From positions 22,488 through 86,487 of the forward strand of contig CAYQEJ010000005.1 in the NCBI GenBank assembly GCA_964416505.1: a stretch of 64,000 bases of DNA, in the 5' to 3' direction. The position numbers and the translations under genes were made by a program. The stretch is from an uncultured Gammaproteobacteria bacterium (GTDB lineage Bacteria > Patescibacteriota > Microgenomatia > Levybacterales > UBA12049). Under the pieces are notes generated by a model that saw nothing but the letters and a program-made list of their open reading frames with translations, searched no databases and was not told where the DNA came from. Of this stretch, positions 4,973 to 55,600 are shown piece by piece. Every line of letters starts with the position of its first letter. The first letter of the stretch is position 1.

Positions 4973-5650
4973 TCAATCCTCTATTATTAAGTTGTCTAAT
5001 TTTTCGTAGTCGTTAAATTCTTTTATAAAATTTTCGTAAGTAAGATTTGGAAACTTTTGAGAAAAATGGATAAGCACTTCTTCTGGTCTAACCCATTTCG
5101 TATCTTTTATTCCCAAATATTCAGAATATGAAGATGGTGTCTCAGCATTTATGGCTTGCTTATGAATATACTTTGTTAAATGGACAAATTGTTCGCCATT
5201 TCCTACCAAAACAGCTTTGTAAACACCTTGAAACAAAGAACCTACTCTCTTATATTTCCTATTAAAATACATTGAATATCTAGTAAAAACAGAATTCATA
5301 AATTTATCTATACTATCCAAATGTTTTTGCTTCACGAAAAAATGGAAATGATTTGGCATCAAACAATAACAAATAAGCGTAATTTCATCAGAAAAATTAT
5401 TTAAATTAAGAAGTTTTAATACTTTATCTTTTTCTTTATATGAGGTCTCGGGGTCATTTAGCTTTTCGGCTAGTTCTTTTTCGTTTTTTGGCAATAGATA
5501 TTCCTTCAGGTAAGAAAGGAAAACCGAATAATCTTGAGCATCCAGAAATATTTTCCTTTTTTCTACCCCCCTGTTATAGAGATGATAGTAGCCATTCTCC
5601 AGATAGCTTTTCCTTCTATTCTTGGCAGGCATAATTTTAAAATAACACAA
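4973..5650 (-). CDS. REP-associated tyrosine transposase (RAYT) / IS200-like Y1 HUH transposase
   Basis: HUH motif (CLMPNHFHFFV) and catalytic Tyr motif (GSLFQGVYKAVLV). Flanked by REP palindromes at 4933-4963 and 5684-5698. Confidence 0.8.
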   Translation of the reverse strand: MCYFKIMPAKNRRKSYLENGYYHLYNRGVEKRKIFLDAQDYSVFLSYLKEYLLPKNEKELAEKLNDPETSYKEKDKVLKLLNLNNFSDEITLICYCLMPNHFHFFVKQKHLDSIDKFMNSVFTRYSMYFNRKYKRVGSLFQGVYKAVLVGNGEQFVHLTKYIHKQAINAETPSSYSEYLGIKDTKWVRPEEVLIHFSQKFPNLTYENFIKEFNDYEKLDNLIIED

Positions 5651-5906: not shown

Positions 5907-7010
5907 ATGAATTTCCCTACTATAAAGGAAAGCGAATATACATACTCAAAACCAATTACAGTTAAAGAGTGGAATAACGGCACCATATGTGTGAAGGTGG
6001 GATATGTTAGAAAACACCCTGAAATAAACTGTATTGTGCTTGAAAAGAGATGGAAATCAAGACCTGACTGGTGGGAAACTAAAACGTTCTCAATAAAAGA
6101 TGCCAAAGATTGGCTTAAAATTAGAGATGCTGTCGAAAAACTTTTACCAGAACTTGCAGAAACACCCTCATCTCAGACAATAGAGAAAGCAATTAAGAAA
6201 GTTGGGAATGAAACAGAATTACTTGAGTTAGTAGCAACTTATCCTGAGCTTCTCGCACAAATCCCAAAAGATATCGACATCCTATCGCTTCCTGAAGATC
6301 ATAAGGAGGCGTTAAAAAAATTATTATCTGTGGGTGGAGAGCTGGCAAACATCGTCATAAAACGGCTAGCAGATGAGCCAATAGAAGACTTGAACCAATT
6401 TGTGAAATTATTAGATGAATTAAAACTATCGACAATCAACTCACTCGTGACACATGTCACCTCCCGCTTACGTTTCATTGAAATGTTCGAAAAAGCTATT
6501 CACAATGATGATTCTTATGAAAGACGTGGACCTGAATCTATTCATAACTTATTAAAGGTAAATATCTGGCTCCTAGACCAGAACTACTCTGTCTTACATG
6601 ATGATGAAACCCTTAGAAATATTATCCTCAAGGAATGGGATAAGGATGTAGGGAACCAAGGAGATGGAAAAAAACGTCCTGATTTTCTTTGCATGATTGA
6701 TCCACTATCACAACGCGATGGATACAAAAAATTGGTAATAGTTGAAATTAAAAGACCTACTGTAAAAATTACATTTGAGCATGTTAAGCAGATGATGGAA
6801 TATAAAGGGATCCTTCACTCATACTCGGGTAAGCAAATTGACTCTTTCGAATGCTTTCTGATTGGTAGAGAAGTTGACCCTACCTTACAAATTAACGACT
6901 TATCTAATTCGGGATTTGTTATCAAAACCTATACTGACTTTATCAGCGAAGCAAGAAGGTTCTATCAAGAATACTTCAAAATCATTGAACAAGAACACTA
7001 CGCTTTTTAG
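5907..7010 (+). CDS. Hypothetical protein with C-terminal PD-(D/E)xK nuclease-like motif (restriction-endonuclease-like fold; possibly DUF4263/Shedu-like)
   Basis: C-terminal RPDFLCMIDPLSQRDGYKKLVIVEIKRP shows D, then about 15 residues, then E-x-K on a predicted beta-strand, the canonical PD-(D/E)xK arrangement. N-terminal region unrelated. Sits alone between REP copies next to the RAYT. Confidence 0.45.
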   Translation: MNFPTIKESEYTYSKPITVKEWNNGTICVKVGYVRKHPEINCIVLEKRWKSRPDWWETKTFSIKDAKDWLKIRDAVEKLLPELAETPSSQTIEKAIKKVGNETELLELVATYPELLAQIPKDIDILSLPEDHKEALKKLLSVGGELANIVIKRLADEPIEDLNQFVKLLDELKLSTINSLVTHVTSRLRFIEMFEKAIHNDDSYERRGPESIHNLLKVNIWLLDQNYSVLHDDETLRNIILKEWDKDVGNQGDGKKRPDFLCMIDPLSQRDGYKKLVIVEIKRPTVKITFEHVKQMMEYKGILHSYSGKQIDSFECFLIGREVDPTLQINDLSNSGFVIKTYTDFISEARRFYQEYFKIIEQEHYAF

Positions 7011-7498: not shown

Positions 7499-7527
7499 TT
7501 GACATCCCCCACAAAATGTTGTATGAT
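7499..7527 (+). promoter_or_regulatory. Sigma70-type consensus promoter (TTGACA-17-TATGAT)
   Basis: Exact -35 and near-consensus -10 with a 17-nt spacer. ATG at 7536 is only 8 nt past the -10, so the transcript is leaderless or nearly so. Confidence 0.6.
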
Positions 7528-7535
7528 CCCCTCGT

Positions 7536-8150
7536 ATGTCAAGACCAGACGCATTAGAAGCACATGCACCAGTCCATCCTAGATGGCAAAGACCAGTTCC
7601 TGGGTATACACCCACCACAGATGGTGCACCTAAATTACCCAACAAACCTAGAACCCCACATATTCCACATATTAATCATGGAGGAAGAATTTTAGCAGGC
7701 GCTTTAGCTACAGCACTCACTCTTACAGCAGTTGAAGGATTTGTAAGGCCTCACGGAACTACAGATCCATCTGGAGCAAGAGCTGGTGAAGTCCCAGCAG
7801 AACAAATGAGATATCCATGGGATTCAGGAAATTTACACTTAGAATTGCAATATAAAGAGGTTGATCAGAACATATTTGAATTTTCAGGAGCACAAATCAC
7901 TAATGATCCAGAAACAGTAGACATTGGTGACGGAAAGTATGTCCAATTTGTTCTTGGAAGCGAATATGGCGAAACTGATGATCCATACGGTCACGTAACT
8001 ATTAATCTTATAAATGATGTTATGAAGGGTGGAGTTTGGGAAAAATCAGTTGATAAAGACGGAAAACCTATCACAGATGCTGAAGGAAAACCAGTCCTTC
8101 ATCACTATGGATATGTAGAACCAGAACCAGGTCAAGAAGGCATGTCATAA
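7536..8150 (+). CDS. Hypothetical Pro/Gly-rich protein with one hydrophobic segment
   Basis: ORF directly after the consensus promoter. Composition is Pro/Ala/Gly-rich with locally elevated GC, but codon choice is host-like (AGA Arg, CCA Pro). Confidence 0.5.
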   Translation: MSRPDALEAHAPVHPRWQRPVPGYTPTTDGAPKLPNKPRTPHIPHINHGGRILAGALATALTLTAVEGFVRPHGTTDPSGARAGEVPAEQMRYPWDSGNLHLELQYKEVDQNIFEFSGAQITNDPETVDIGDGKYVQFVLGSEYGETDDPYGHVTINLINDVMKGGVWEKSVDKDGKPITDAEGKPVLHHYGYVEPEPGQEGMS

Positions 8151-8201: not shown

Positions 8202-9278
8202 ATGACAGAAGCATATAGACCAACACAAGGAGAAATACTTACTACACCAGTTGACCTAGCTGGCGTAAAAAACGTAACCAACACAGCTCCAAAAGCTTCA
8301 AGAAATGATTTATCACACGATATGATGGCAGGACCATCTTTTAGAGATAGAGCTCTAGCAGTTGCGCTAGCACTAAGCACTCTAGGAGGAGCCAAAGTAA
8401 TCCTTGATTCACAAACAGCAAAAGGACAATCGCCTTCTCCTGCACCATCAGTTGGCGCATCTTTTGAACCAGGCACAAGTCCAGTAGCTACAGATCCGAT
8501 TACAGGATTACCATGTGTTCCTGGAGAAAAACCAACACCTGAACCTTCAAAAGCACCACTACCTTCACTCCCACCAGACATAGGTATGGTTCCAGGAGGA
8601 GAAGTAGAATTATTTGCTTTCGCAAATACAGGAGGAGACAACGTAAAAGTAACAGCTGGAGCTCAATCGGAACCATCTTTAGCTCCTTCAGTAGCGCCTG
8701 AAGCAAGCCCAGAAGCTTCTCAAGACCCAGAAACCGCAAAGGCTGACTGCACACCAGCTCCAGAAAAAACTCCTTTAGCTGATTTAGACATCATTGCTGA
8801 AAAAGATAAGATTCTAGATCAAAACAAAAAACAGATTAAAAAGGTCAAATTCGCTAAACTCCAACAGGATATACTTGGTGATCCAGAAAATCCACAAGGT
8901 GAACCAGGTTTTTGGAATACCCATCAAGAAGAATTAGCTAAATTAAGAACATGGTATGATACTCCGCTAACGAGAACAGTTTTTGAAAATTATTTACACA
9001 ACATAAGCGTGGGTCCCGATTCAATTCAAGGAGACCCAGAGGCTTCAATTGCTGTCGAAAGACAAGCGGTTGATGCGGGATTTGTAACACTGTTCTTATT
9101 CATCGCAGATACCACAAATAACCAAGAAATAAGAGATGAGGCCCTTAGATTAGCTGACATGGCTTTCGATTATGGAGTTAGAGGAATTAATAAATTTCAA
9201 GACTTTGAAGCTAATCTAGCAGATATGAAATTCAAAATTAATGATACTGATTACTTCTATAACCTCACGAATCAATAA
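8202..9278 (+). CDS. Hypothetical protein: N-terminal hydrophobic segment, Pro/Ser/Ala-rich linker, structured C-terminal domain
   Basis: Low-complexity PSPAPS/PEPSKAPLPSLPP region. C-terminal part is non-repetitive. Confidence 0.5.
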   Translation: MTEAYRPTQGEILTTPVDLAGVKNVTNTAPKASRNDLSHDMMAGPSFRDRALAVALALSTLGGAKVILDSQTAKGQSPSPAPSVGASFEPGTSPVATDPITGLPCVPGEKPTPEPSKAPLPSLPPDIGMVPGGEVELFAFANTGGDNVKVTAGAQSEPSLAPSVAPEASPEASQDPETAKADCTPAPEKTPLADLDIIAEKDKILDQNKKQIKKVKFAKLQQDILGDPENPQGEPGFWNTHQEELAKLRTWYDTPLTRTVFENYLHNISVGPDSIQGDPEASIAVERQAVDAGFVTLFLFIADTTNNQEIRDEALRLADMAFDYGVRGINKFQDFEANLADMKFKINDTDYFYNLTNQ

Positions 9279-9352: not shown

Positions 9353-10027
9353 ATGCTTCATTTTACTTTAAAGAGCCTTACATCTAAGAAAAGCCTGATT
9401 CTCATTTTCGTATTCATACTTTTAATTTTAACCCCCTTAATTATTTTCTTAATTTCAAAATTCGCTACTCCTCCAACCCCTTCTGAAATATTCATTAAAC
9501 AAACACAAAATTTTATAGATAAAAATAACGGGGATAATGAAATCCCTGAAGAAATTAGTGATATTTTTGATACTCTCAACGATAAAACCAACTCAGATAA
9601 AGATCAGTATGAAGCACTGAAAAGCTTGTCTTTCTATTTCTCATCGGCTTATTCTGAAAGCAAAAAGCCTGATATTAGAGACTATAATTCTAAATATATA
9701 AATGACTATGCTAAAAACTATTATTCAAATTTATATAAAAATTATGATTTTATTATCCCCTGCTCAGATCCAACATGCGGACAGAGCTTAGATAGTGAAA
9801 TTTCAGAAGCCATAAAAATTATTGATACTAGCAAGCTTGATAAAGACATTAAAAATACAATTATTGAAAATTTAAAAACTGCTGGATATACACCTGACCT
9901 CGAAAATAAAAAAATAGGTCTTACTCTATCCATAAGCCAACTTAAAGAAACTAATGATAAAGATGCATCTAAAGCAGCAGATCTTTTATATAAATACGCA
10001 AAAGAAAAATACAATATAGAACAATGA
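9353..10027 (+). CDS. Hypothetical N-terminally membrane-anchored protein
   Basis: Single N-terminal TM helix (LILIFVFILLILTPLIIFLI). Asp/Lys-rich soluble part. 4-nt overlap with the next gene. Confidence 0.5.
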   Translation: MLHFTLKSLTSKKSLILIFVFILLILTPLIIFLISKFATPPTPSEIFIKQTQNFIDKNNGDNEIPEEISDIFDTLNDKTNSDKDQYEALKSLSFYFSSAYSESKKPDIRDYNSKYINDYAKNYYSNLYKNYDFIIPCSDPTCGQSLDSEISEAIKIIDTSKLDKDIKNTIIENLKTAGYTPDLENKKIGLTLSISQLKETNDKDASKAADLLYKYAKEKYNIEQ

Positions 10028-13000
10028 GAAAAATAATAAATTTATTTAGTTTATTTACTTTTTTTTATATTTTAGGATTAATATTTTTACCTAAATCATC
10101 TGAAGCAGTAACGCTACGCATATTTTTTGGTAGCAATAATAAAAGCAATATTATTTGGCAAGTGGGATTCAGAGTTATATATAACTACAATACCGATAAT
10201 CCAACTTATACAAGCACATATAAAACATGGGTTGATAGAAACACTAACCCTGATTTCAACAGAAACGGAGGATACGAGATGTATCCGAATTACAATGATG
10301 CATGGAGACTTCAATGGGGAACCGGGTGTATTGATCCAAAAGAAAGAATTCGTATTACAAAAAATAGCCTTGAAGGAAATAACATATATGAGGCAAGTGG
10401 GAATGTTACCTTAAGTAAATCAAACCTAGATAGACTGGGTCAATATGGATCAGTAGACGTCTCCTATCCATATCTTGATGATATTGATTATTTCGAAAAC
10501 CAAGGCACAACAAAAAAAATATATTTTGGATCATTCACATCAATCTCTTCCAGCTGCCCAAGAAAACCTGTTCCACAATACGATATCAAAGGATATGTAT
10601 TCTTAGATAAAAATAGCGACGGAAAAGAACAAGCTTCTGATGGATGTTATCAAGGAAATTATGACCTTACAGTTAACGGAAATAGAGATAATGATCACAC
10701 ATCTAAAGGCTGCGGCAGTGGAAATGACCCATACTTTTTACTTTCTAGAAGCACAAAATCAAATACGGTTTGTCTAGTTGATCCCCCAGGTTATAATTTA
10801 ACTACTAGTAAGTGTAAAACCATAGGCGGAGATGGAACTGTAAAGTTTGGTATAGAACAGGAGCGTGGAAAGATTTCAGGAAGAGTCTATGTAGATGAAC
10901 AACCTAATTCCAAGATCGACGGAAATGATTCTTTTCTCAAAAACATTGAGATAAGAAGAAATCCTTCTGGAGCAAACGAAAAAAGAGTAACTGATAATAA
11001 TGGAAGATATACTTTCGGAGATCTGGATCCAGGATCAGACCATAACATACGACTTATCGAACCAGGCCCGGATTTCCTTGATTGCAAATATACACTTCAC
11101 GGTGACAATCCGAAGTTAAATGTAAATGCTGTTTCTACGCAAAACGATGTAGATTTCCGTTTATCGCGAAAATATTATGAAATAAGAGGAAATGTTTATA
11201 GATGCAATTCCGGCACCTGCACAAGAGCTGCAAACGATGGTACATATAATAGAAGTATTACCGTTACAGCAGTAGGCACCGGAAGAAGTGATACTTCCAA
11301 AGTCGGTGATACTCCAGATTATAGAATAACGAGATTAACAGATCGCGCAGATGCCTACAGCGTAAGAGTCTCGGGGCTTAGAGCTGGAGAAAGCGTAGTC
11401 GGAGGAAATCCTCAAAATGTAAATATTAACTGCGCAAATGAAGTTCACGATATTTTTATCCGTCCAGCTGGAGCTACTGACTTCTCTATCTCAGGATCTG
11501 TTTATGTAAATACAAATGGCGTAGACGGAATCCAAAAAACAGCTTCTGGCACTACCCCAGCTGATGAAATCTATGACGGTGGCGGAACGGTGCAAATAAG
11601 AAGATGTGCCAACCTAGCATGCGCTTCCAGCAATAATACAAGTAGAACTGATACTCTTGGAATAAGCGGCGGATATCAAATTGACAATAATCCTCTTGAC
11701 GGCACAGGATTAGACTTTAGAGTTAGACTTCTTGCAGGGACGCTGGCTGATGGATATACAATTAATGGCACACCAGGAAATGACAGAGCGGTAAATAATC
11801 CTACTGGGGATGTAGGCAATATCAATTTCTTAGTAGATGCTCCTGGTAACACATACTCAATCGCTGGCGGAGTCTACATAGATACTGATCCTCCTGAAGG
11901 AAGAAAAGCAGATTCAGAAGATTATGCAGCAGCTTCAGGAACTGAAAGGATCACAATTACTGGACTAGACGCCGGAAATTCCAGCGTCAATAAAACCATT
12001 ACGCCAACTGCATCAGGATTTAAAACATCCGGTCTTCCTCCTGGAAGATATCAGGTAGACTTTAGCGGTCCAAACGGAAGAGGGGCTGATTGGATAGTCA
12101 CTTACCCATCAGGAACAGCTCCTTACAGAATGGCTACTATAACACTAGGACCTTCCTGCGATGATAGCGCTACAGATCAAGACGGAGTGGCACTATGCGA
12201 ATCTAGCGGAGGAACTAAAACGGGCAATGTCACAAATGTAGACTTTGGAATAAAACAGCAAACAGATCAAGCATGGTACCAATCTATCGGCGGAGATATT
12301 AGAGTTGATAAAGATAATTTTAGAAATGAAATTCCAGCAGGGGCTGCAAATATATGTCCGACGAACAGCACTAGACCATACTTCTCTACCAACTCACTTA
12401 CAAACACTATGTCTGAAGGAATAATATTCACAGGCACCAACCCTGATCTCGCTAGAGTCGGTCAAAGTAACACAAAATCCTCCCCCAATGGATGGCTAGT
12501 TACCGGAAACAAATTTACTCCTTTTAAACCTGGTGTAATCAGAACTTCATATTCATTTGTTTCAAATGCAATTAAAAAAGGAAGAATCACAAAATATAAA
12601 GTGTTTTATAGCGATCCAAATCAACCAAACAGAGCCTGTGAACAAGCAAATAGCTCAGACTGTAATTTAAGAACTGATCTACAAAATGGAGTTTTCCAAA
12701 CAAATCAAAAAGTAACAATTCAAGGAACTGGCGCTCCTGAATCTTACACTTTCCCAACAAATGGAGACTTTGTGATCTTAGTAGATGACGATTTGAGAAT
12801 AGAAAGTAATATTATAGTACCAGCAGGATCAACTGCTACATTTATAGTTTCTGGAAATATTTCAGTTAGCCCAACTGTTACCAGAATTGATGGCATTTAC
12901 TCTACAGATAAAAGCTTCATAACCGAAGGAAGAAGCTCAGGAGCTGATACTCCTTTAACTATCAATGGTAATATTATCGCAAACGCGGGATTAAATTCTG

Positions 13001-14271
13001 GCAGCATTTTTGATCAAAGAAGAGATTTAGGAGATGCGCAAAATGCAATTTGCCCTGCTGTGAGAATAATTTCCAGACCTGACTTTATACTTAACGGACC
13101 TGAACTCCTTAGAAATACTAATTATGTATATCAGGAAGTTGCACCAGGAGCAGTTGATAGCGGATCTCAAGGAGGAGCAAGCTTTGATGATGCAACTCCA
13201 GAATGCGTACCTGAAAGTGACTCAGCATTTTGCGACAGAAAAGCTAAAAATTGTGGAGAAGTGTCAGGAAATGATAACTGCGGCAAATCAAGAACAGTCT
13301 CTAGTTGTGGATCCTGCACTTCCCCTCAAACATGCGGTGGAAGCGGAAGCGCAAATGTTTGCGGCACTACCTGCGTAGAAGAAACGCAAGCACAATTCTG
13401 CGCAAGACGAGCTAAGAATTGCGGAACTGTGTCCGGTAACAATAATTGCGGAATACCTAAATCATACAATTGCGGTACATGCACTTCTCCAAAAACTTGC
13501 GGTGGCGGAGGTGTCGCAAATGTTTGCGGAGAGGCGGATGCAGGAGACGGCGGAGATACAGGAAGCACTTTTAAATTTTACTGTCAGTATGGAGCTGTAA
13601 ATAAATTAGGTAAGGTTACTAGTCGAGGTTCCTGGAATTATTACTATGATTCAGGAAAATATTGTGATATCTATGGAGCTGGCTGCGCAATGACATCCCT
13701 ATCTATGATAATGACCTACTACGGAGATAAAATATTTACTCCAGATGTTACCTCTAGACAAGCTACAAACAACAAATACCCTACCAACTTAGGATGCGCA
13801 TCACCTGGAACATTAACATCTCAGCTAGAGGACACTGTCAGACCATGGCTTATGAGTAAAGGTTATGCGATGAATGCTTACAACATGGTGGAATGGAGCA
13901 ATTTATCAGGAGGCGGCTACAGAGGAAGACTAGGAGATGGCACTAATAAAGCAAATTTAAGGCATCTTAAGGACGTCTACATAGATAACGGCTTTCTTAT
14001 CTTAGGCGGCGCAGTGATTAGATATGCTACGCAAACAGGACTCTCTTCCCCTCATGGACATGCATTTGTTATAACTGATATTGACGTAGCAAACGAAACT
14101 ATGACAATCTATGATCCAACTTATTGCCAAACAAATAATGATGCTTTAAGTGGCGGAAAACGCATAATCAAAGATTTAGATAAGATAGATGGAACGCCAA
14201 TCGGATGCTCGGGAAGTGGCAGTGGAAAAAGATGCGGTTGGATTCAACTTTTTGCAATTAAGAAAAAATAA
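10024..14271 (+). CDS. Giant secreted protein (1415 aa) with Cys-rich tandem modules and C-terminal C39-like cysteine peptidase domain
   Basis: N-terminal signal peptide. Long Gly/Asn/Thr-rich beta-type region. Two tandem ~50-aa 8-Cys modules (CDRKAKNCGEVSGNDNCG...CGSCTSPQTCGGSGSANVCG and CARRAKNCGTVSGNNNCG...CGTCTSPKTCGGGGVANVCG). C-terminal GCAMTSLSMIMTYYG and HGHAFVITDID...IYDP match the Cys and His motifs of Peptidase_C39-like domains. Confidence 0.7.
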   Translation: MRKIINLFSLFTFFYILGLIFLPKSSEAVTLRIFFGSNNKSNIIWQVGFRVIYNYNTDNPTYTSTYKTWVDRNTNPDFNRNGGYEMYPNYNDAWRLQWGTGCIDPKERIRITKNSLEGNNIYEASGNVTLSKSNLDRLGQYGSVDVSYPYLDDIDYFENQGTTKKIYFGSFTSISSSCPRKPVPQYDIKGYVFLDKNSDGKEQASDGCYQGNYDLTVNGNRDNDHTSKGCGSGNDPYFLLSRSTKSNTVCLVDPPGYNLTTSKCKTIGGDGTVKFGIEQERGKISGRVYVDEQPNSKIDGNDSFLKNIEIRRNPSGANEKRVTDNNGRYTFGDLDPGSDHNIRLIEPGPDFLDCKYTLHGDNPKLNVNAVSTQNDVDFRLSRKYYEIRGNVYRCNSGTCTRAANDGTYNRSITVTAVGTGRSDTSKVGDTPDYRITRLTDRADAYSVRVSGLRAGESVVGGNPQNVNINCANEVHDIFIRPAGATDFSISGSVYVNTNGVDGIQKTASGTTPADEIYDGGGTVQIRRCANLACASSNNTSRTDTLGISGGYQIDNNPLDGTGLDFRVRLLAGTLADGYTINGTPGNDRAVNNPTGDVGNINFLVDAPGNTYSIAGGVYIDTDPPEGRKADSEDYAAASGTERITITGLDAGNSSVNKTITPTASGFKTSGLPPGRYQVDFSGPNGRGADWIVTYPSGTAPYRMATITLGPSCDDSATDQDGVALCESSGGTKTGNVTNVDFGIKQQTDQAWYQSIGGDIRVDKDNFRNEIPAGAANICPTNSTRPYFSTNSLTNTMSEGIIFTGTNPDLARVGQSNTKSSPNGWLVTGNKFTPFKPGVIRTSYSFVSNAIKKGRITKYKVFYSDPNQPNRACEQANSSDCNLRTDLQNGVFQTNQKVTIQGTGAPESYTFPTNGDFVILVDDDLRIESNIIVPAGSTATFIVSGNISVSPTVTRIDGIYSTDKSFITEGRSSGADTPLTINGNIIANAGLNSGSIFDQRRDLGDAQNAICPAVRIISRPDFILNGPELLRNTNYVYQEVAPGAVDSGSQGGASFDDATPECVPESDSAFCDRKAKNCGEVSGNDNCGKSRTVSSCGSCTSPQTCGGSGSANVCGTTCVEETQAQFCARRAKNCGTVSGNNNCGIPKSYNCGTCTSPKTCGGGGVANVCGEADAGDGGDTGSTFKFYCQYGAVNKLGKVTSRGSWNYYYDSGKYCDIYGAGCAMTSLSMIMTYYGDKIFTPDVTSRQATNNKYPTNLGCASPGTLTSQLEDTVRPWLMSKGYAMNAYNMVEWSNLSGGGYRGRLGDGTNKANLRHLKDVYIDNGFLILGGAVIRYATQTGLSSPHGHAFVITDIDVANETMTIYDPTYCQTNNDALSGGKRIIKDLDKIDGTPIGCSGSGSGKRCGWIQLFAIKKK

Positions 14272-14726
14272 TGGATAATCAAATAGAACCTATGCCAGTT
14301 GTAGAAAATAAAAAACCAATAGATAAAAAGCTAGTTGGAATCTTATTGATCGTATTGATTTTAACAGTTTCAATTATTTTAGCTTTGATATTTTTTATAA
14401 GAAGTGCTGGAAATTCCTCAAACAAGACCCCTTCCCCAACAATATCAGAACCTCAAACAGGAACAGGACTGGAAGAAAAAGCCGAAAATCCCGAGATAAT
14501 GCTTCAAAATCGTGGATACAAACTTAGCAAATTAGGCGCTAAGCTTCCATATTCTGGCACCAACTTTTCACTTTCCTATGATCTAAATGAAGACGAATTT
14601 ACTTTGTATGTTAATCCTTCAGCTCAAAAAGAAGGAAATGATGAATTAAATAATTATTTAAAGGAAAATGGAATCGAAAGCTTATCCTGGATTACAAATC
14701 TCAAAAGAACAAATCAAAAATTCTAA
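14271..14726 (+). CDS. Hypothetical small membrane-anchored protein
   Basis: Start overlaps the stop of the giant gene (ATAATGG). One TM helix. Confidence 0.5.
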   Translation: MDNQIEPMPVVENKKPIDKKLVGILLIVLILTVSIILALIFFIRSAGNSSNKTPSPTISEPQTGTGLEEKAENPEIMLQNRGYKLSKLGAKLPYSGTNFSLSYDLNEDEFTLYVNPSAQKEGNDELNNYLKENGIESLSWITNLKRTNQKF

Positions 14727-15561: not shown

Positions 15562-16842
15562 ATGTTCTGCGAAGGATTTACCCTGAGCTTGACGAAGGGA
15601 TGTGGTGAAACGGCTATCACAGCAGTCTCCAAAACTGCTTTTCTCAGTTCGAATCTGAGCATCCCTGCAAAAAATCCACTTGAATCCCCTTTTTCTAAGT
15701 GCTATATTTTCCCTGTGCCAAATCCCGAGCGTAGATACCCCCTGCCTCGAAGAGATAGTTTTAAAAAGCGCTTAGCAGCTGCTGGAATGTCAGTAATCAT
15801 GTCAGGCGCTCCTATTTCTCTTCCAGCTCACTACGACCCCATACAAGCCAATCCAGACCAACAATATGGAATGTATAGCTACGGCATACAGGGTTATCAA
15901 GTTATTAAAGATACCGGCGATATTTCAAGAGGTTTTGATCCTACAGAAGGAAGAGGAAAAGAATATGGAGAAAAAGATAAAGAAAAACTCGTAGATCTTC
16001 TAGAGACAGTTTACGATGCAAATTTAAACTTTGTTTTTTTCTCATGGTATCCGGATATAAGAGACGACTTCTGGACATTAGTAGATGATGTTATGACTAA
16101 CCCATCTAACCCATATAAAGATTTAGTAAAAACATCCTTTGTTTATGAGCCTGAATCCAATGAAGACTCCATGGAACTATCTAGGATGAACGACGACATT
16201 GGAAAACTTAGCAGATTTTTTGATAAACCTTATTTTTTAAAAAACAAGGATGGCAAACCTGTATTTACTGTTTTTGCTTCAGAATGGGAAGGATTTGTTA
16301 ACAATAGCGGTTATGTTCAGAAATGGGATGAAATAGCAGAAAAATATGGCGCATATATAATTCTTGAAGATTATCCAGGAATAAGTTTGAATCCTAGCTA
16401 CCAAAATAGTCAGGATAGAATAGGATCCATTAGCTATGGCGATGATCCGTGGCTTCTCACCTCTGACGGCTACCGAGAAGGAAGAAATGCAGTAAGAATT
16501 AGATGGAGCTACCACAAACCTGGTGATTTTAAATGGCAAGACTATAGCGCTACGCAACTCAAAACAAACATAGGCAGGATGCTTGCTTCAGGTGAAGAAT
16601 TTGGAATAGGAATATCAATAGATGAAGGCTACGAAGATACACAGGCTACACCTCAAGTTTTCGATATTTTCAAAGCCTCTCTTCCTGACCGGGCAAGTTA
16701 TGACAATTTATCTAGAGAAGAAAAAATAAAAGTTCTCAGAAATAAAGCGCAAGATCTTCGAAATGGAGAATCTTTACCACCTCCGCCTTTCCTTATCTAC
16801 GATAACGCGACAGATAGAACCAGAAGACAAAGAATAGCATAA
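15562..16842 (+). CDS. Hypothetical protein, possibly a glycoside-hydrolase-like TIM-barrel protein
   Basis: No signature motif recognised with confidence. Inserted between rpmG and secE. The true start may be an internal Met (MSVIMSG...). Confidence 0.45.
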   Translation: MFCEGFTLSLTKGCGETAITAVSKTAFLSSNLSIPAKNPLESPFSKCYIFPVPNPERRYPLPRRDSFKKRLAAAGMSVIMSGAPISLPAHYDPIQANPDQQYGMYSYGIQGYQVIKDTGDISRGFDPTEGRGKEYGEKDKEKLVDLLETVYDANLNFVFFSWYPDIRDDFWTLVDDVMTNPSNPYKDLVKTSFVYEPESNEDSMELSRMNDDIGKLSRFFDKPYFLKNKDGKPVFTVFASEWEGFVNNSGYVQKWDEIAEKYGAYIILEDYPGISLNPSYQNSQDRIGSISYGDDPWLLTSDGYREGRNAVRIRWSYHKPGDFKWQDYSATQLKTNIGRMLASGEEFGIGISIDEGYEDTQATPQVFDIFKASLPDRASYDNLSREEKIKVLRNKAQDLRNGESLPPPPFLIYDNATDRTRRQRIA

Positions 16843-49637: not shown

Positions 49638-52600
49638 ATGAACCTATCTGCCCTTTTCAAAGAATACTTAAATAAACAAACCAATCCACCGTCCGGAATA
49701 ACAATTAAAAATTATATTTCTGATGTTAATAGATTTATTAGATGGTTCGAAGCTAAATTTAATTCAGAATTTATCCCTTCTGAAATAACTCCAAGCCTAT
49801 TAGAGCAATTCAAGTCTGAGAGCCTACAAAACTATTCAGCAAGCTCTGTAGATCGATCAGCCTCATCCCTTCGTAAATTTTTTAGTTTTTTAAAGCTAGA
49901 AGGCCAAATAAGCCATTCCCCTTTTGAGGTCAAAGAAGAAAGACGTGAAAATGATGATCCATGGAAAATAAGAGACTTCAAGAATCACCTATATGTTTTT
50001 GGGGCATCGCATCTTACTATAAAAAACTATATCATTGATGCTAAACAGTTTTTAACATGGGTTGATCTCGTTGTGAAAAACAATAAAGATTGGGATTTAA
50101 TAAACATCAGTACTTTTAGCAAGATTAACCCCCAACTGATAGAGGAATACAAAAATCGATTATTGAACGAAGCCCATCTTTCTCCTATATCTGTTAACAG
50201 AAAACTATCTTCGATTAGAAGATTTATATACTGGGCAATTCAAGAAGGACTTATAAATAACGATTCTGGTTTTGAAAACATATCTAACTCTCAGATTAAT
50301 CAAATTATAAATACAAATTCAGAAACAAATGATATCAATACACATCAAAACGACTCAGAAGAATTAAACAGTAATGATTACTCTAAAATTCCGCCTGTTA
50401 GACTTGCTCAAAAATTAAAAATTGGGTTAATCGGAATAATCGATTCCCTTATCACAGCTCCGGTAGCTCAAGCCTTAGAAAAAACAGATTCATTAGTCTG
50501 GAATATTAAAGGAAATCCTGTATTCAAGGAGAAAGTTAATCTGGAGAATAAAATCCCTGTTCCAAGCATAATAGATCCTAAAAAAATTAATAATATTCCT
50601 AAATCTTTTTATTCACCTACAACTCTTTCTACTGCAAGCTTTCCACTTCATAAAAAAATTTTGCACCATGCACGCAATTCAAGACCAAAATGGTACAAAA
50701 CATATCATTCCTATGCATTTGCATCATATTTACACTTTTCCATCCTTATGCTCTTTATTTCTATCATGGGATATTTTATATTCCAAACATTCAGCCCAAC
50801 AAAAGAACAACCGAGAACATTAGCAGCTCTACCCTCTTCTCCACCTCGAATACTTTCTTTTCAAGGAAGACTAACTGATTCATCCGATAGTCCTATCACC
50901 AAAAAGACTAACTTAAGAATGTCTATATATAATAGCCCTACTTCTTCTGGATCAGCTTTATTATGGCAAGAAGTCGTAAGCCCTACGCCAGATTCTGAAG
51001 GAATATTTTCTATAATACTTGGCTCAAGCACTCCAATACCACAAAGCTTATTTGCTCAGAATAGCGGTCTATGGTTAGGCGTAACTGTTGAAGGAACTGA
51101 AGAATTAAAACCTAGACAACAATTAGCAACCGTAGCATATGCGAGCAATTCTGAAACTCTCCAAGGATTACCACCGATAACCAATACCACATCTACATCA
51201 AATGTAGTTCTTGCACTTAATTCTTCGGGAAATTTAACCATAGGCGGAACCGCCAGTCCAACTTTTCAAGCAACAGGCGGAACCTTCACGCTACTTGGAA
51301 AAACATTAGTACTTACAACGTCAAGCAACGGAAGCATAAAGCTCTCCCCCAATGGAATTGGTGTTATCGATATTCAGAAATCTATTCAAAACACATCGAA
51401 CAATGGTACGCTGGTTCCTGGATCTGTCACCATAGAAGACTTATTTTCCGTAATAGCCACATCATCCGGTCAAGCTGTATTAAATATTTCACAAGGTTCA
51501 TCTGGGGACCTAGTTATGGCTTCAACATCGGGCAATCTAAGATTTAGAATTGATAATGCTGGGAATCTTTTTGCAAATGGAACAATCAACGGACTTTCTG
51601 TTAATTCGGGGACTATTGACTCAGGAACATGGCATGGAGTAGAAATTGGAGCTCCATATGGTGGAACAGGACAAACTTCCTATACTACCGGAGACATGCT
51701 TTATGCAAGCGATTCAACTGTAATATCTAAGCTTGGAATTGGGTCAAATGGAAGCTGTCTCACTTCTAATGGAGTTGTTCCGACTTGGATTTCGTGCGTG
51801 ACCGCAAGTAATGGCGGAGGCTTATGGAATCAATCTGCAGGAGTTTTATTTCCAACCAACTCAACAGTAGATTTTTTAATCGGCGGACAATCCACAGAAT
51901 CAGCAAGATTTGCATTAACAAACATAAATGGGACACGTGGATCACAAGTAGCATCTCTATCAGGAAGCATAACTCTTGATTCTTCAACAGCTACTATCCA
52001 AACTACAAATAACCAAGATCTTAACTTAGGCGGCAACACTACTGGACTTATTAATATCAGGAATAATGCAGGATCTATTTTCACAACATTTGACACTGTC
52101 AACTCAAGAATTGGCCTAGGCACCACAAACCCAGGCTTTAATTTTGATCTAGTAAATAATTCAGGGGATGCGGCAATAAGACTCAAAGACTCAACTAATA
52201 ATCTTGAAGGAATAATCACGACAGGTGGGTCAACTCTAGATTTTGGATCCCTGACTAATCATCCTATTGTTTTGTATACCAATAATGATTCAAAGCTGAG
52301 ACTCAGTGCAAATGGTGGACTTTCATTGGGAACAATATATAGCGAAACAGATGCAAACTCGAATGATTTACTTGTTGAAGGAAATGTAGGAATTGGAACA
52401 ACAAGCCCTACGGCAAAACTAGATGTAAATGGAACTGCATCAATTTCAGGAGGATTAACCGTTTACGGAACTGCAAATATTCAATCATCAGAATTTAAAA
52501 CACTAATTTTTGGAGGAGATACGACAGGCAATCTAAATCTAGAAGCTGGATCGAGCGCAAACTCAGGATATGTCTTGATTGGATCTGCTGGTCAAGGAGG

Positions 52601-55600
52601 AGTAACTAATCCTGACTTTTTAGTGATAGATCAGGCTTCAGGTGCACTTCCAACTCCGGTAAATGGAGCATTAGCGATGGACTCAACTGGAAAATTTAAT
52701 ATTTATGAAAATGGCCAATGGAAAGTGCTATGTAATAAAACCGATGAAACTTGCGGAACTGGATCTGGATCTTCATTATCCGCAATTACACTCGCTACAG
52801 GAGGAAACACTATAAATAATGGTGATAATGCGCAAGCATGGAATTGGTCCATTTCGACAAATTCTAAGGCGGCTTTTACATTTGGGGAAAACTCTGCATC
52901 AACAGGAAGTAACTCAACTATTCTTAAAGTCTCGACCATTGCTAATTCTTCCGCCTCACCATTTCAAGTAGACGCACGCGGAAGTAGTGCTTTTAGCATT
53001 GGCAACACCGGATTGATAGGAATTAACACCACTTCCCCACTTGCTTCCTTAGACCTAAGGTCAAGATCTGGGACTCTTCCCACTGCCTCAATCTCTGGAT
53101 CTTCTTCAGCTGCAGGATTATTAATTGATCAATCAGGATCTGGAGACATTTTCGCAGCTTCAAAAGGAGGCACTACAAGATTCGTTATCACAAATGGTGG
53201 AAATATAGGAATTGGAAGCACAACTCCATCATCATCTTTATATGTAACACGTCCACTTTCATTTAGAGCTAATGGAAAAGCACTAGCAATTTTTGATCAA
53301 CTTGAATCAGGACAAGATATAATAACAGCTTCTCTATCTGGCGAGACTATGTTTTCCGTAAGAGGCAACAACACTAACGCAGGTATTGAGCTGGGACAAA
53401 TAGGCACATCTACTACTCCATACTTTGATTTTCACTCAGGCGCAACAGCAACCGATTATGATGCGAGGATTGTTGCATCAGGTGGAACGGGAGTTTCTGG
53501 TGGAGGAACCCTTCAAATTACTTCCGGAGGATTAACCTTAGCTGGACAATCCACTGTCACTGCAACATCTCTAACCACCTTCACTACGGCAGCGACACTC
53601 GGCATGACTTCAACTACTACTCTAAATTTAGGAAATAACGCAACTCTATCTTCAAATGCGACTGCCTTAAACCTAGAGGAAGATGGTGGTGTAGACGTAA
53701 ATATTGCCGGGACATCCAGCGGAACAGGGTGTACCATCACTAATTTAAATGGTAATTTTGCCTGCGCAGGTACTAGCACCTTCGCAACTGACGAAACCAT
53801 AAATGGAATAGATATTGACTCTGGTGCCATAAGTGATGTCTCAACATTAACCCTAGGATCTTCACTCTACTCGTCATCGGATCATATCTCAGTTTTAGAT
53901 AACAAAACAAACGATACCACATATGAATGGTTCGGATTCTACTCAGGAAGCACAAGACAAGGAATAATACTGTACGATGGCGCTTGGGCAGGCTGCGCGA
54001 ACTCCGCTACAGACTTTTGCGTAGTGGCTGAAAATAGCAACAGATTAGTCCTTCAGAGCGGAACTACAGAAGTTTACGTAAATGATAGCTTGACTACAGT
54101 TGGTGATTTAAATGTAGATGGCACCTCAAATGATATCGCAGGCACCTTAAATCTTTCAGGAAATACCCTTACCTCAAGCGGTGATCTAACAATAAATCCA
54201 ACTGGCGGAGATATAATATTTGGTGATGGAGACACAATCGCCTTAGGTGGAGTGGCAGCAGGATTAGCATATAATGCAATTTCAGATTCAGGAGGAGCAA
54301 CTGATCATGGACTTGCCTCAGATGATGATCTTTTTATTGAAGGAGATTTAGAAACAAATGGAGTTCTATATGCAGATGGAGGAATAGATACGGCATTTAC
54401 AGCGGGAAGTCTAGTTTTTGCGGGAACAAATGGACTACTTACACAAGATAATTCCAATTTATTTTGGGATGATACAGATAATAATTTAGGTATTGGCACT
54501 ACTTCAACCCCATCCGAATCAAACCTGGTTCTCGGTTCTCATTCCACCACTGAAGGCGGACAAATCCAGCTCAATCCAGGGTCATCTGGATCTGTGGCAT
54601 ATTTCCTGGATGTTTTTAACGACTCACTTAGATTTTTGACAGGAAATACAGGCGCAAGCTCTTCTACTATTGGACAATTAACAAGTAGCACATTTACGCT
54701 TAACACTCAGACTACCATAACAGCTTCAAGTCTTGCTAATTTCACTACAGCTTCCACCCTAACCTTTTCAGGCGACATAGGCGTTTCGGGAGGAGACATA
54801 ATAGGTACTACCGCAAACATAGATCTTGGAGAAGCTTTAGCGAATAGAATTAATTTAAGCGCAGATAACCCAGGCGGATATTTTGTTTTAGGATCAAATA
54901 TTAATTCAATCCTCGAGGCTGATAGCGATCTAGAGATAAATAATTACGGAGCTTCAAACACCATTAGGAAAACTTATATAACTAATAGCGGAACTACAAA
55001 TGGTATTAGGTTTGGAATTAACATAAGTAATCCTCAAGGAATGTTTCATGTAAGCGGAGATGCTGCTGGAAAAGCTCTTGCCATATTAAATCAAACAGGA
55101 ACAACTGATATATTATCCGCTTCTGTTTCAGGTGAATCTAAGTTCAGAATAACAAATACAGGATCTGTCATCACAGAAAATAATTTATACGTAGAATCAG
55201 GATTTATCTCCCTTTCCTCTGGAGGGTGGGAATACGGATTGCAAAATAATATTTCAGGAAGCGGATGTGCTGCGGATACAATCTGCTGGACCAAAATTGG
55301 AGATGCAAGCCCTGATAAAATGTCTCTTACAAATAACGGTAATTTAGTGACTCGCGGCACTATGACAGCAAGCAGTAATCCTGATATAGCAGAGACGATT
55401 AACATAGATGATCAATCTATTGAATCAGGAGATATAGTTTCCTCAAACAGTTACAATCCAGATGCAGAAAATCCTTATTACAAAGCAGTAGCAAGCAAAT
55501 CAAGCACTGAATATCAGCCATCTATGATTGGTATCATTTCCGAAGACCCATCCTTCCTAATAAGAACAAAAAGCAGTAAACCTATTTCAGACAAATGGGA

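Follow-up and report, generated by a model that had tools for sequence, protein, structure and literature searches.

The peptidase domain that closes g4, a protein encoded in a 64,000-nucleotide stretch of DNA (the window) from an ultrasmall Levybacteria-type Patescibacterium, is one among several C-terminal ends that an otherwise conserved body carries interchangeably. Together with a small protein of the g5 type encoded just downstream, this C39_2 peptidase forms a fixed two-gene module that is a regular component of Patescibacteria T4SS clusters. We consider it moderately probable that the end of g4 is an exchangeable peptidase tip directed at the cell envelope and that g5 is its cognate guard or regulator, tethered to the membrane, a reading in which we infer the export, the orientation, the substrate and the protection by g5.

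Architecture of g4 and its C-terminal domain

An earlier reading of these letters (the sequence-only reading) had described a 1415-aa secreted protein, and the ORF exists as claimed (Table 1). Its N-terminus, MRKIINLFSLFTFFYILGLIFLPKSSEA followed by VT, is laid out in n, h and c regions like a Sec signal peptide, which supports the proposed secreted or surface location; we take g4 to be a putative Sec-exported surface stalk protein. Neither an LPXTG motif nor a C-terminal TM anchor was found in its sequence, which is rich in G (11.4%), T (9.0%), S (8.6%) and N (8.4%). The Ig-like repeats of the stalk matched PF17210 at 35.3 bits and, on a sub-fragment, PF13620 at 34.3 bits, and the terminal domain of the scaffold gave a weak match to DUF7305 (22.8 bits, under the cut-off). 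Full-length homologues (P0009–P0013) are 49–55% identical to g4.

Two tandem 8-Cys modules, ~60% identical in amino acid sequence, follow the scaffold, which confirms the duplication noticed in the sequence-only reading. The formula quoted there, C-x6-C-x7-C-x8-C-x2-C-x4-C-x7-C, produced 0 regex matches, several gaps being off by one and the first Cys having been left out. The actual spacing is C-x8-C-x6-C-x8-C-x8(7)-C-x2-C-x5-C-x8-C, in which the modules, described as identically spaced, differ by one residue. No Pfam or NCBIfam family matched them. Since 1–3 copies are present per relative, the module is not a chance pattern; the AF2 model shows a helix plus a beta-hairpin (pLDDT ~75–84).

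The C-terminal 247 residues (aa 1169–1415) matched PF13529 at 26.6 bits (E 1e-5, profile positions 13–142 of 143), above the gathering threshold of 24 bits, and full-length g4 scored 21.1 bits, under that threshold. A relative, P0043, scored 27.1 bits, and homologues P0002–P0008 have a precomputed PF13529 assignment. The motifs GCAMTSLSMIMTYYG and HGHAFVITDID...IYDP, singled out earlier, are both present. Q1188, C1221, H1346 and D1364, as well as four extra Cys at positions 1187, 1214, 1258 and 1368, are unchanged across 11 homologues that share 37–75% identity. In the AF2 model of the domain (pLDDT ~85–93), the top PDB folds returned by Foldseek were staphopain, Alr0975, AvrRpt2 and GtgE, all papain-fold at probability 1.00, the structural matches themselves being weak (E>=1e-3, TM ~0.5). 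PDB searches by sequence, with the domain or with its profile, returned nothing relevant. Because the C-terminus matches PF13529 and its Cys and His are conserved, the papain-fold C39-like assignment withstood the refutation that had been proposed for it, namely the lack of such a match or of such conservation. As judged from its sequence, the domain is a papain-fold C39_2 peptidase with apparently functional catalytic Cys, His and Asp, and it belongs to a divergent Patescibacteria subfamily of PF13529. A transglutaminase-like activity had also been suggested; no transglutaminase-family match was found in Pfam, and we dropped this reading.

PF13529 stands apart as a family of secreted single-domain peptidases whose general function is unsettled (PMC10318531), and Peptidase_C39_2 has been catalogued as an enzymatic domain in endolysins of Gram-positive phages (PMC8223927). 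The best viral folds for the g4 domain (BFVD), likewise weak matches, were a phage peptidase, a Gordonia phage endolysin and phi29-type morphogenesis hydrolases. No homologue of the subfamily was found in the viral contigs scanned, PHROGs matched neither the peptidase, g5, the HExxH domain (see below) nor the scaffold domain, and the NCBIfam search with peptidase and scaffold gave no match. Pfam detected no SLT, CHAP or NlpC/P60 domain in g4.

Table 1 Features of the g4 locus (positions in the window)
Feature	Position	Strand	Basis
g1, 204 aa, predicted single-pass membrane protein; conserved first gene of the syntenic cluster	7536..8150	+	orthologues
g2, 358 aa, conserved membrane or Pro-rich protein	8202..9278	+	orthologues
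g3, 224 aa, N-terminal TM helix	9353..10027	+	orthologues, overlap read directly
g4, 1415-aa putative surface protein	10024..14271	+	ORF, ATG start
Signal-peptide-like N-terminus, aa 1-28 (...SSEA/V)	10024..10107	+	inferred from sequence reading
Stalk, SdrD_B / CarboxypepD_reg-type Ig-like repeats, ~aa 184-740	10573..12243	+	Pfam
Scaffold terminal domain, ~300 aa, aa 745-1046, WYQSIGGD...RPDFILNGP...QEVAPG	12256..13161	+	profile search
8-Cys module 1, aa 1061-1113	13204..13362	+	Cys spacing, AF2
8-Cys module 2, aa 1117-1168	13372..13527	+	Cys spacing, AF2
Peptidase_C39_2-like papain-fold domain, aa 1184-1415	13573..14268	+	PF13529, invariant residues, AF2, Foldseek
Q1188	13585-13587	+	invariant residue
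Predicted catalytic C1221	13684-13686	+	invariant residue
H1346	14059-14061	+	invariant residue
D1364	14113-14115	+	invariant residue
g5, 151-aa cognate partner of the C39_2 peptidase	14271..14726	+	overlap, AF2, homologue positions
tRNA-Thr(tgt), conserved right-hand boundary of the variable segment	15046..15118	+	locus comparison

Variable ends and a co-varying partner gene

The g4 gene sits between g3 and a tRNA cluster. Genes g2 and g3 have orthologues in every syntenic locus (32–39% and 30–40% identity, respectively), and orthologues of g1 occupy the same place in L001, L003, L005 and L006 (40–67% identity). No Pfam family was matched by g1, and neither Pfam nor NCBIfam by g2. The g3 and g4 genes are translationally coupled through an ATGA overlap. 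A promoter-like 11/12 match at 7499–7527, just 5′ of g1, is a positional hint only, as scans for promoters and terminators showed no enrichment over shuffles.

The ~1045-aa body is conserved from one syntenic Levybacteria locus to the next, and everything past the junction ...QEVAPG (...QEIAPG in relatives) varies. What follows the junction is a C39_2 domain, a Cys module with an unclassified HExxH domain, a GH115_C-like lectin module or nothing, and each of these end types is represented by few independent lineages (2–3 each). Body identity does not track end type: P0010 (HExxH) and P0012 (GH115_C-like) have bodies that are 88% identical, with the first ~400 aligned columns 100% identical, and unrelated ends. 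Searches of PDB, Pfam and NCBIfam with the HExxH domain gave nothing. Tails found more widely in the scaffold family are GH115_C-like, TSP_1, Laminin_G_3, C39_2 or HExxH. The profile of the scaffold terminal domain matched 2722 cluster representatives (E<=1e-3). Among the best 150 of these, ~90% have a match that runs out where the protein ends; judged from such alignments, this domain is the true C-terminus in most relatives. Two orthologues of g4, P0009 and P0014, are without any tip.

The gene 3′ of the body changes with the end. Directly 3′ of C39_2 ends lies a g5-family gene (44–53% identity between the g5 copies of the window and L001); in the window, g5 is coupled to g4 through a TAATG overlap. 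Homologues of g5 were found only directly 3′ of C39_2 domains. HExxH ends are followed by a 204–206-aa family unrelated to g5; a weak match of the g5 HMM to this family is confined to the TM helix and so is not evidence of homology. Lectin (GH115_C-like) ends and absent ends have no gene 3′, and at lectin-type ends the ~308 nt before tRNA-Thr are empty. No orphan end or immunity cassettes were found downstream of g4. AF2 models g5 with an N-terminal TM helix (aa 19–46), a disordered linker and an alpha-beta-beta-alpha-beta domain (aa 74–151) that is predicted to face the outside of the membrane. A fold search of the PDB gave no significant match for g5, and thus no known inhibitor fold can be claimed.

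These observations bear on the idea, raised in the sequence-only reading, of a displaced copy of the C39 domain of bacteriocin exporters. According to it, a bacteriocin-type C39 leader peptidase has moved to the C-terminus, where it autoprocesses g4 or matures nearby double-Gly peptides. PF13529 and PF03412 do belong to one clan (PMC10318531), their folds are distantly similar, and a Gly-Gly occurs at the junction of body and tip in g4 (SQGGASF). However, PF03412 found nothing in the C-terminus of g4 even at E<=10, where the matches listed were PF13529 and a weak PF12385, and the HlyB C39-like domain appeared only at ranks 37 and 49 of the PDB fold search. No ABC transporter was found among the neighbouring genes of the locus, and no double-Gly leader in the products of g1, g2, g3 and g5, including the small neighbours starting at 9353 and 14271 that had been pointed out as candidates. 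Relatives without a peptidase (P0012) conserve the corresponding junction motif, SQGAGGF, just as well, and hence this motif cannot depend on the C39_2 domain. The strict pairing of C39_2 with g5 is also left unexplained. Whereas PF03412 domains such as those of ComA and HlyB are cytoplasmic and N-terminal, the g4 domain is C-terminal and, by prediction, extracellular. We rejected this bacteriocin-type reading, though not autoprocessing as such, as highly improbable.

The same pairing could mean that g5 is a membrane docking receptor and that C39_2 is mainly an interaction module tethering the C-terminus of the stalk, or a T4SS peptidase, with catalysis secondary. Such docking would suit a g4 that lacks LPXTG and a C-terminal TM anchor, a membrane-anchored g5 whose small ectodomain is confidently modelled, and a pairing that is strict in both stalk and T4SS contexts. 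We nevertheless regard it as distinctly unlikely. The invariance of Q, C, H and D over 37–75% identity argues for selection on catalysis, an anchor of this kind is dispensable for orthologues without a tip (P0009, P0014 and most of the 2722 family members), and the HExxH tip has a different partner of its own, a pattern typical of enzyme-specific protection.

We instead favor a model in which the conserved ~1045-aa body (N-terminal domain, Ig-like repeats and ~300-aa terminal domain) would carry an exchangeable C-terminal tip, consisting in g4 of two disulfide-rich 8-Cys spacer modules and the papain-fold peptidase. Displayed at the distal end of the stalk, the peptidase would cut something in the cell envelope, with peptidoglycan peptides or an envelope protein of a partner or host cell as the most likely target. 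The bitopic g5 protein would be the cognate, membrane-tethered protein that binds it, most probably as an inhibitor or as an immunity-type guard of the producer's own envelope.

The peptidase and its partner in T4SS clusters

The closest relatives of the g4 peptidase are stand-alone proteins of ~250 aa encoded just 3′ of VirB4 in Patescibacteria T4SS clusters adjoining dnaN/dnaA, a location known for the T4SSs of these bacteria (PMC12102498; PMC10633639). At the loci of P0004, P0006 and P0008, the gene order is PrgI, TraC-like, VirB4, an unknown gene, C39_2, g5-like and dnaN. An HMM built from Levybacteria g5 sequences only matched the ORFs that follow the stand-alone peptidases at 1e-20 to 1e-23, within the globular domain. 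Among 12 further metagenomic loci, identified by a scan with the peptidase (a g5-based scan with too-specific patterns gave none), a g5-family ORF comes right after the peptidase in 11, of which 7 show linkage to VirB4 and/or dnaN. No T4SS genes were found among the window ORFs scanned with Pfam, and g4 does not lie within a T4SS cluster.

In monoderm conjugative T4SSs, the wall-degrading enzyme is encoded just 3′ of VirB4, and this led us to propose envelope cutting by the peptidase and a guarding role for g5. Patescibacteria mostly show no linkage between canonical VirB1 and VirB4 (PMC12102498), and in S. epibionticum the virB4-adjoining peptidase and lysozyme homologues are essential (PMC12102498; PMC10633639 supplement).

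The genomic setting also weighs on a more general reading, in which the peptidase is an extracellular or nutritional protease, or an adhesin tip, that digests proteins of the host or the environment for amino-acid scavenging, and g5 is an export chaperone, maturation factor or anchor rather than a guard. Patescibacteria are without amino-acid biosynthesis (PMC10633639), the nearest PDB folds are true proteases (staphopain, GtgE), and the lectin-like binding modules that form other tips of this scaffold hint at an adhesin for host contact. The closest sequence relatives, however, adjoin VirB4 in T4SS clusters rather than nutrient-uptake loci, the viral structural neighbours are wall hydrolases, and a dedicated membrane-anchored partner that moves along between contexts is not obviously needed for scavenging. 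We consider this reading unlikely.

A bolder extension of the envelope-directed tip is a tentative possibility. The mobile, previously undescribed module of C39_2 and guard may be the wall-breaching part of the essential T4SS-like machines of Patescibacteria; captured in some lineages, along with the analogous HExxH enzyme/guard pair, as a swappable warhead on a very large family of stalk proteins, it would constitute a new Sec-dependent polymorphic effector system with which epibionts open the host envelope.

Comparison with known systems

Sec-dependent polymorphic toxins and effector-immunity pairs include B. subtilis WapA-WapI and the LXG protein TelC with its membrane-anchored immunity protein TipC. 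Like these, the g4 family has a large conserved N-terminal body and a C-terminal enzymatic domain that varies among near-identical relatives, and the gene 3′ of g4-type proteins co-varies with the C-terminal type. The g5 protein is also predicted on the outer face of the membrane, where a guard against an effector acting outside the cell would be needed. Unlike these systems, the g4 scaffold is not of the Rhs/YD, LXG, CdiA or MafB type (Pfam detects only SdrD_B, CarboxypepD_reg and the weak DUF7305), many tips of the family are non-toxic lectin modules without a partner, orphan cassettes are missing, and the peptidase and partner pair is also a housekeeping-looking component of T4SS clusters.

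The operon logic of g4 and g5 is shared with staphopain, a secreted papain-fold protease, and staphostatin, the specific inhibitor co-transcribed with it: the protease gene comes first, and a small protein dedicated to the protease is encoded next. Staphopain (1pxv) is the top PDB fold match of the g4 domain. Staphostatin, however, is a cytoplasmic beta-barrel, whereas g5 is modelled as a membrane-anchored alpha/beta protein of unrelated fold. With Peptidase_C39_2 (PF13529, MEROPS clan CA) at large, the g4 domain shares the HMM match, the order Gln...Cys...His...Asp and the predicted papain-like fold. In contrast to the single-domain members, the g4 copy is fused to a 1.2-kaa putative surface stalk behind two Cys-knot modules, and its subfamily has two extra conserved disulfide pairs, always a g5-type partner and no solved structure detectable by sequence. 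For PF13529, this provides a role that can be tested and, in g5, a candidate for a natural inhibitor.

Among the wall hydrolases of T4SSs (PrgK, TraG-pIP501 and CwlT, and VirB1-like enzymes), the place 3′ of VirB4 is equivalent to that held by the nearest homologues of the g4 peptidase. To our knowledge, neither PrgK nor CwlT has a dedicated partner protein. The g4 copy differs from both in having one and in lying outside a T4SS locus. Nor do we know of any immunity partner of a wall hydrolase in a Gram-positive conjugative T4SS; in the T4SS context, g5 could therefore be a docking or regulatory subunit instead. In PrgK, TraG and CwlT there is a cysteine peptidase domain of clan CA, of the CHAP or NlpC/P60 type (PMC12102498), but the g4 peptidase is of another Pfam family, comes without a lytic transglycosylase domain and has only the clan in common with them. 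Cultivated Patescibacteria are attached to host cells, and a T4SS-like system is essential to their lifestyle (PMC12102498). The module of C39_2 and partner 3′ of VirB4 is a concrete candidate for the wall-opening enzyme of this system. Its reuse as a stalk tip, where lectin tips and another enzyme/partner pair occur as well, suggests a modular set of tools for recognizing the host surface and cutting the envelope.

A C39_2 peptidase domain at the C-terminus of a surface protein

The surface protein g4 begins with MRK, a 19-residue hydrophobic stretch and SSEA-V, an arrangement that looks like a Sec signal peptide. Ig-like repeats of the SdrD_B and CarboxypepD_reg types (Pfam) occupy residues ~184–740, and a weak match to DUF7305 lies at residues ~873–952. 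Two tandem 8-Cys modules (residues 1061–1113 and 1117–1168; ~60% identical) come next. The duplication proposed in the sequence-only reading is real, with its spacing slightly corrected to C-x8-C-x6-C-x8-C-x8/7-C-x2-C-x5-C-x8-C. Relatives carry one to three copies of the module. In an AlphaFold2 model of residues 1047–1415, each module forms a helix plus hairpin at moderate confidence.

The C-terminus is a C39_2-family papain-fold domain with all catalytic residues conserved. That it was C39-like had been suggested from the sequence; scanned alone, the last ~235 residues matched PF13529 (Peptidase_C39_2) with 26.6 bits, above the cut-off of 24, the score within the whole protein being 21.1 bits. 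The suggested kinship with the C39 family of bacteriocin exporters did not hold up, as a Pfam search of g4 gave no match to PF03412. A 2023 classification sets the single-domain peptidases of PF13529 apart from the transporter-fused PF03412 (PMC10318531). Q1188, C1221, H1346 and D1364 are invariant across 11 homologues (37–75% identity), as are Cys 1187, 1214, 1258 and 1368; the latter likely form two disulfides, which would fit an extracellular enzyme.

The peptidase was modeled with pLDDT of about 85–93. A sequence search detected no solved structure for it, and its best fold matches in the PDB were papain-fold proteins (staphopain, the phytochelatin-synthase-like enzyme Alr0975, AvrRpt2 and GtgE), with the C39-like domain of HlyB ranking far lower; all were weak (E≥1e-3). 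Among predicted viral structures, the best matches were a phage peptidase, a Gordonia phage endolysin and phi29-type tail morphogenesis hydrolases (E from 7e-5 to 5e-3). In a survey of endolysins, Peptidase_C39_2 appears as one of the enzymatic domains used by phages of Gram-positive bacteria (PMC8223927).

An exchangeable tip on a conserved stalk

Full-length g4 homologues (~50% identity) come from Levybacteria-type MAGs, in all of which the locus is syntenic: fmt, L28, an M50 peptidase gene, g1, g2, g3, the big gene, in some loci a small gene, tRNA-Thr/Tyr/Thr and L33, with PAP2, nucleotidyltransferase, SecE and NusG genes further downstream. In the window, g3 and g4 overlap at ATGA, and g4 and its 3′ neighbor g5 at TAATG.

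Several other features were noted. The Y1 transposase gene just 5′ of the g1–g4 cluster may be domesticated rather than mobile, because its position is conserved across several genomes. Between it and g1 lies a 367-aa ORF without a Pfam match, which looks like a lineage-specific insertion since it is missing from the relatives' syntenic loci. The true start of a 426-aa ORF must lie 3′ of the listed one, because the ORF as listed overlaps tRNA-Trp. An unusual giant protein of 2547 aa matches only N-terminal phage-integrase SAM-like families (PF02899, PF13495 and PF13102), leaving >2300 aa without Pfam assignment. The Levybacteria-syntenic locus is carried by TPA MAG records whose titles read 'uncultured Gammaproteobacteria' or 'Saccharibacteria' (L008, L010–L013, L015 and L016 by record title, and also L007), so these taxon labels look unreliable.

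Coordinates of features in the window and in related loci (L numbers)
Feature	Sequence	Position (strand)	Product
g4, surface protein	window	10024..14271 (+)	1415 aa
g5, partner gene	window	14271..14726	151 aa
IS200-like Y1 transposase gene	window	4973..5650 (-)	
Y1 transposase gene, same place	L001	4360-5049	
Y1 transposase gene, same place	L005	1262-1972	
Y1 transposase gene, same place	L006	4593-5282	
ORF between transposase gene and g1	window	5907..7010 (+)	367 aa
ORF overlapping tRNA-Trp	window	15562..16842 (+)	426 aa
tRNA-Trp	window	15596-15668	
Giant ORF	window	49638..57281 (+)	2547 aa
HExxH partner gene	L003	12053-12673	
HExxH partner gene	L013	3128-3742	
Second stalk-family gene	L025	1444-2238	
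Second stalk-family gene	L028	5169-7373	
HEIGH-motif protein gene	L018	1324-3399	691 aa

The conserved part of the g4 body runs to ...RPDFILNGPELLRYTNYVIQEIAPG, and the sequence beyond varies by locus. The end consists of two Cys modules and C39_2 in the window and L007 (99% identical); of a Pro-rich linker followed by C39_2 (P0013), by one Cys module and an unclassified HExxH domain (P0010, P0011, P0019, L013 and L008) or by a GH115_C-like beta-sandwich (31.6 bits; P0012, L011 and L015); or of nothing (P0009, P0014, L014 and L017). End type does not track body similarity. P0010 (HExxH) and P0012 (GH115_C-like) are 88% identical overall, and such bodies with different ends imply that the ends were recently swapped by recombination. 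Their bodies (L005/L012 and relatives) are mosaic, with 100% identity over the first ~400 aligned residues, 59–62% in the middle and ~92% near the end; this alignment pattern indicates that recombination has affected the stalk body in addition to the tip.

At E≤1e-3, 2722 cluster representatives matched a profile of the terminal body domain (~300 aa); at E≤1e-30, 396 did. This domain forms the protein C-terminus in about nine-tenths of the best 150 matches, and a minority have varied tails: a GH115_C-like module (five tested), TSP_1 plus GH115_C-like, Laminin_G_3, Cys modules plus C39_2 (P0043, 27.1 bits), Cys modules plus HExxH (P0048, three modules) or unclassified segments. Thus, the stalk C-terminus accepts add-on tips, some being binding modules and some enzymes; Cys modules were found only with enzymatic tips, not with binding-type tips.

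The HExxH tip (C-termini of P0010, P0011, P0019 and P0048) is a domain of ~205 aa, rich in Cys, that contains the motifs HE[ST]GHIIRN and ESMAELM. At two other metagenomic loci, L025 and L028, a second stalk-family gene follows the C39_2-tipped stalk gene and g5, so stalk genes can be tandemly arrayed. At L018, a protein with a HEIGH motif, a C-terminal TM helix and no confident Pfam match is encoded 3′ of a distant stalk-family member.

A membrane-anchored partner and its occurrence in T4SS clusters

The C39_2 tip has a strictly co-occurring, membrane-anchored partner. A C39_2 end is followed by a g5-family gene (the window product and the 140-aa L001 product are 44–53% identical), and an HExxH end by a gene of an unrelated 204–206-aa family (L003 and L013 products, 64% identical); at GH115_C-like loci, nothing but ~308 nt of non-coding sequence precedes tRNA-Thr. 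All other g5 homologues recovered (P0016, P0017 and P0018) are encoded directly 3′ of a C39_2 C-terminus. An N-terminal TM helix is common to the two partner families. AlphaFold2 placed that of g5 at residues 19–46; beyond a disordered linker comes an alpha-beta-beta-alpha-beta domain modeled with confidence (residues 74–151, pLDDT about 90), for which a PDB fold search gave no significant match. The HExxH domain and its partner had no match in Pfam, NCBIfam, PHROG or PDB sequences and may represent a new metallopeptidase/partner pair.

The C39_2 and g5 pair is also embedded in type IV secretion system (T4SS) clusters. The proteins most closely related to the peptidase (P0002–P0008, 37–48% identical) stand alone, are ~230–260 aa long and have N-terminal hydrophobic segments. 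Where genomic context was available, the gene order was PrgI-family protein, TraC-like, VirB4-type ATPase, unknown gene, C39_2 peptidase, small TM protein and dnaN/dnaA. The small TM protein is a g5 homologue: against 972 six-frame ORFs, an HMM built from Levybacteria g5 sequences only matched the T4SS small proteins at 1e-20 to 1e-23 across the globular domain, and matched HExxH partners through the TM helix only. A metagenome scan for the peptidase subfamily yielded 12 further loci, 11 with a g5-family ORF directly 3′ of the peptidase and the twelfth with a marginal partial match; seven showed linkage to VirB4 and/or dnaN, and at one (L028) the peptidase is again the tip of a stalk protein. 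This context agrees with the published description of Patescibacteria T4SSs, which lie near dnaN/dnaA in Microgenomatia and in which canonical VirB1 is mostly unlinked to VirB4 (PMC12102498). Homologues of peptidases and lysozyme beside virB4 are essential in S. epibionticum (PMC12102498). There, the VirB4 homologue SEML1_0008 is flanked by SEML1_0006, to which structure-based annotation assigns a cysteine-proteinase domain and two lysozyme-like ones, and by SEML1_0007, a DD-peptidase type (PMC10633639 supplement).

Proposed function and relation to known systems

We suggest that the C39_2 enzyme acts on a cell-envelope substrate, because in T4SS clusters it occupies the place that wall hydrolases have in monoderm systems, because its structural neighbors are endolysin-type, and because lectin-type alternative tips imply that the stalk C-terminus touches a foreign surface. 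The substrate could also be protein instead of peptidoglycan.

The C39_2 family is already known, and an Rhs-type polymorphic toxin has been reported in passing in a Saccharibacterium (PMC6031116). The literature searched contained no description of a stalk scaffold whose lectin and enzyme tips are interchangeable, of the C39_2–g5 module, or of its dual use in T4SS clusters and stalk proteins. With this module, the Patescibacteria T4SS gains a concrete candidate for its wall-opening component, and PF13529 a function that can be tested.

For g5, a function in docking or regulation is conceivable. We favor the possibility that g5 would restrain the enzyme, or guard against it, at the producer's own membrane, since enzymatic tips have partners and non-enzymatic tips have none. 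The theme of a polymorphic C-terminal enzyme that has its cognate partner is not new, and the proposed guard role is by analogy with the staphopain/staphostatin, TelC/TipC and Tae/Tai pairs.
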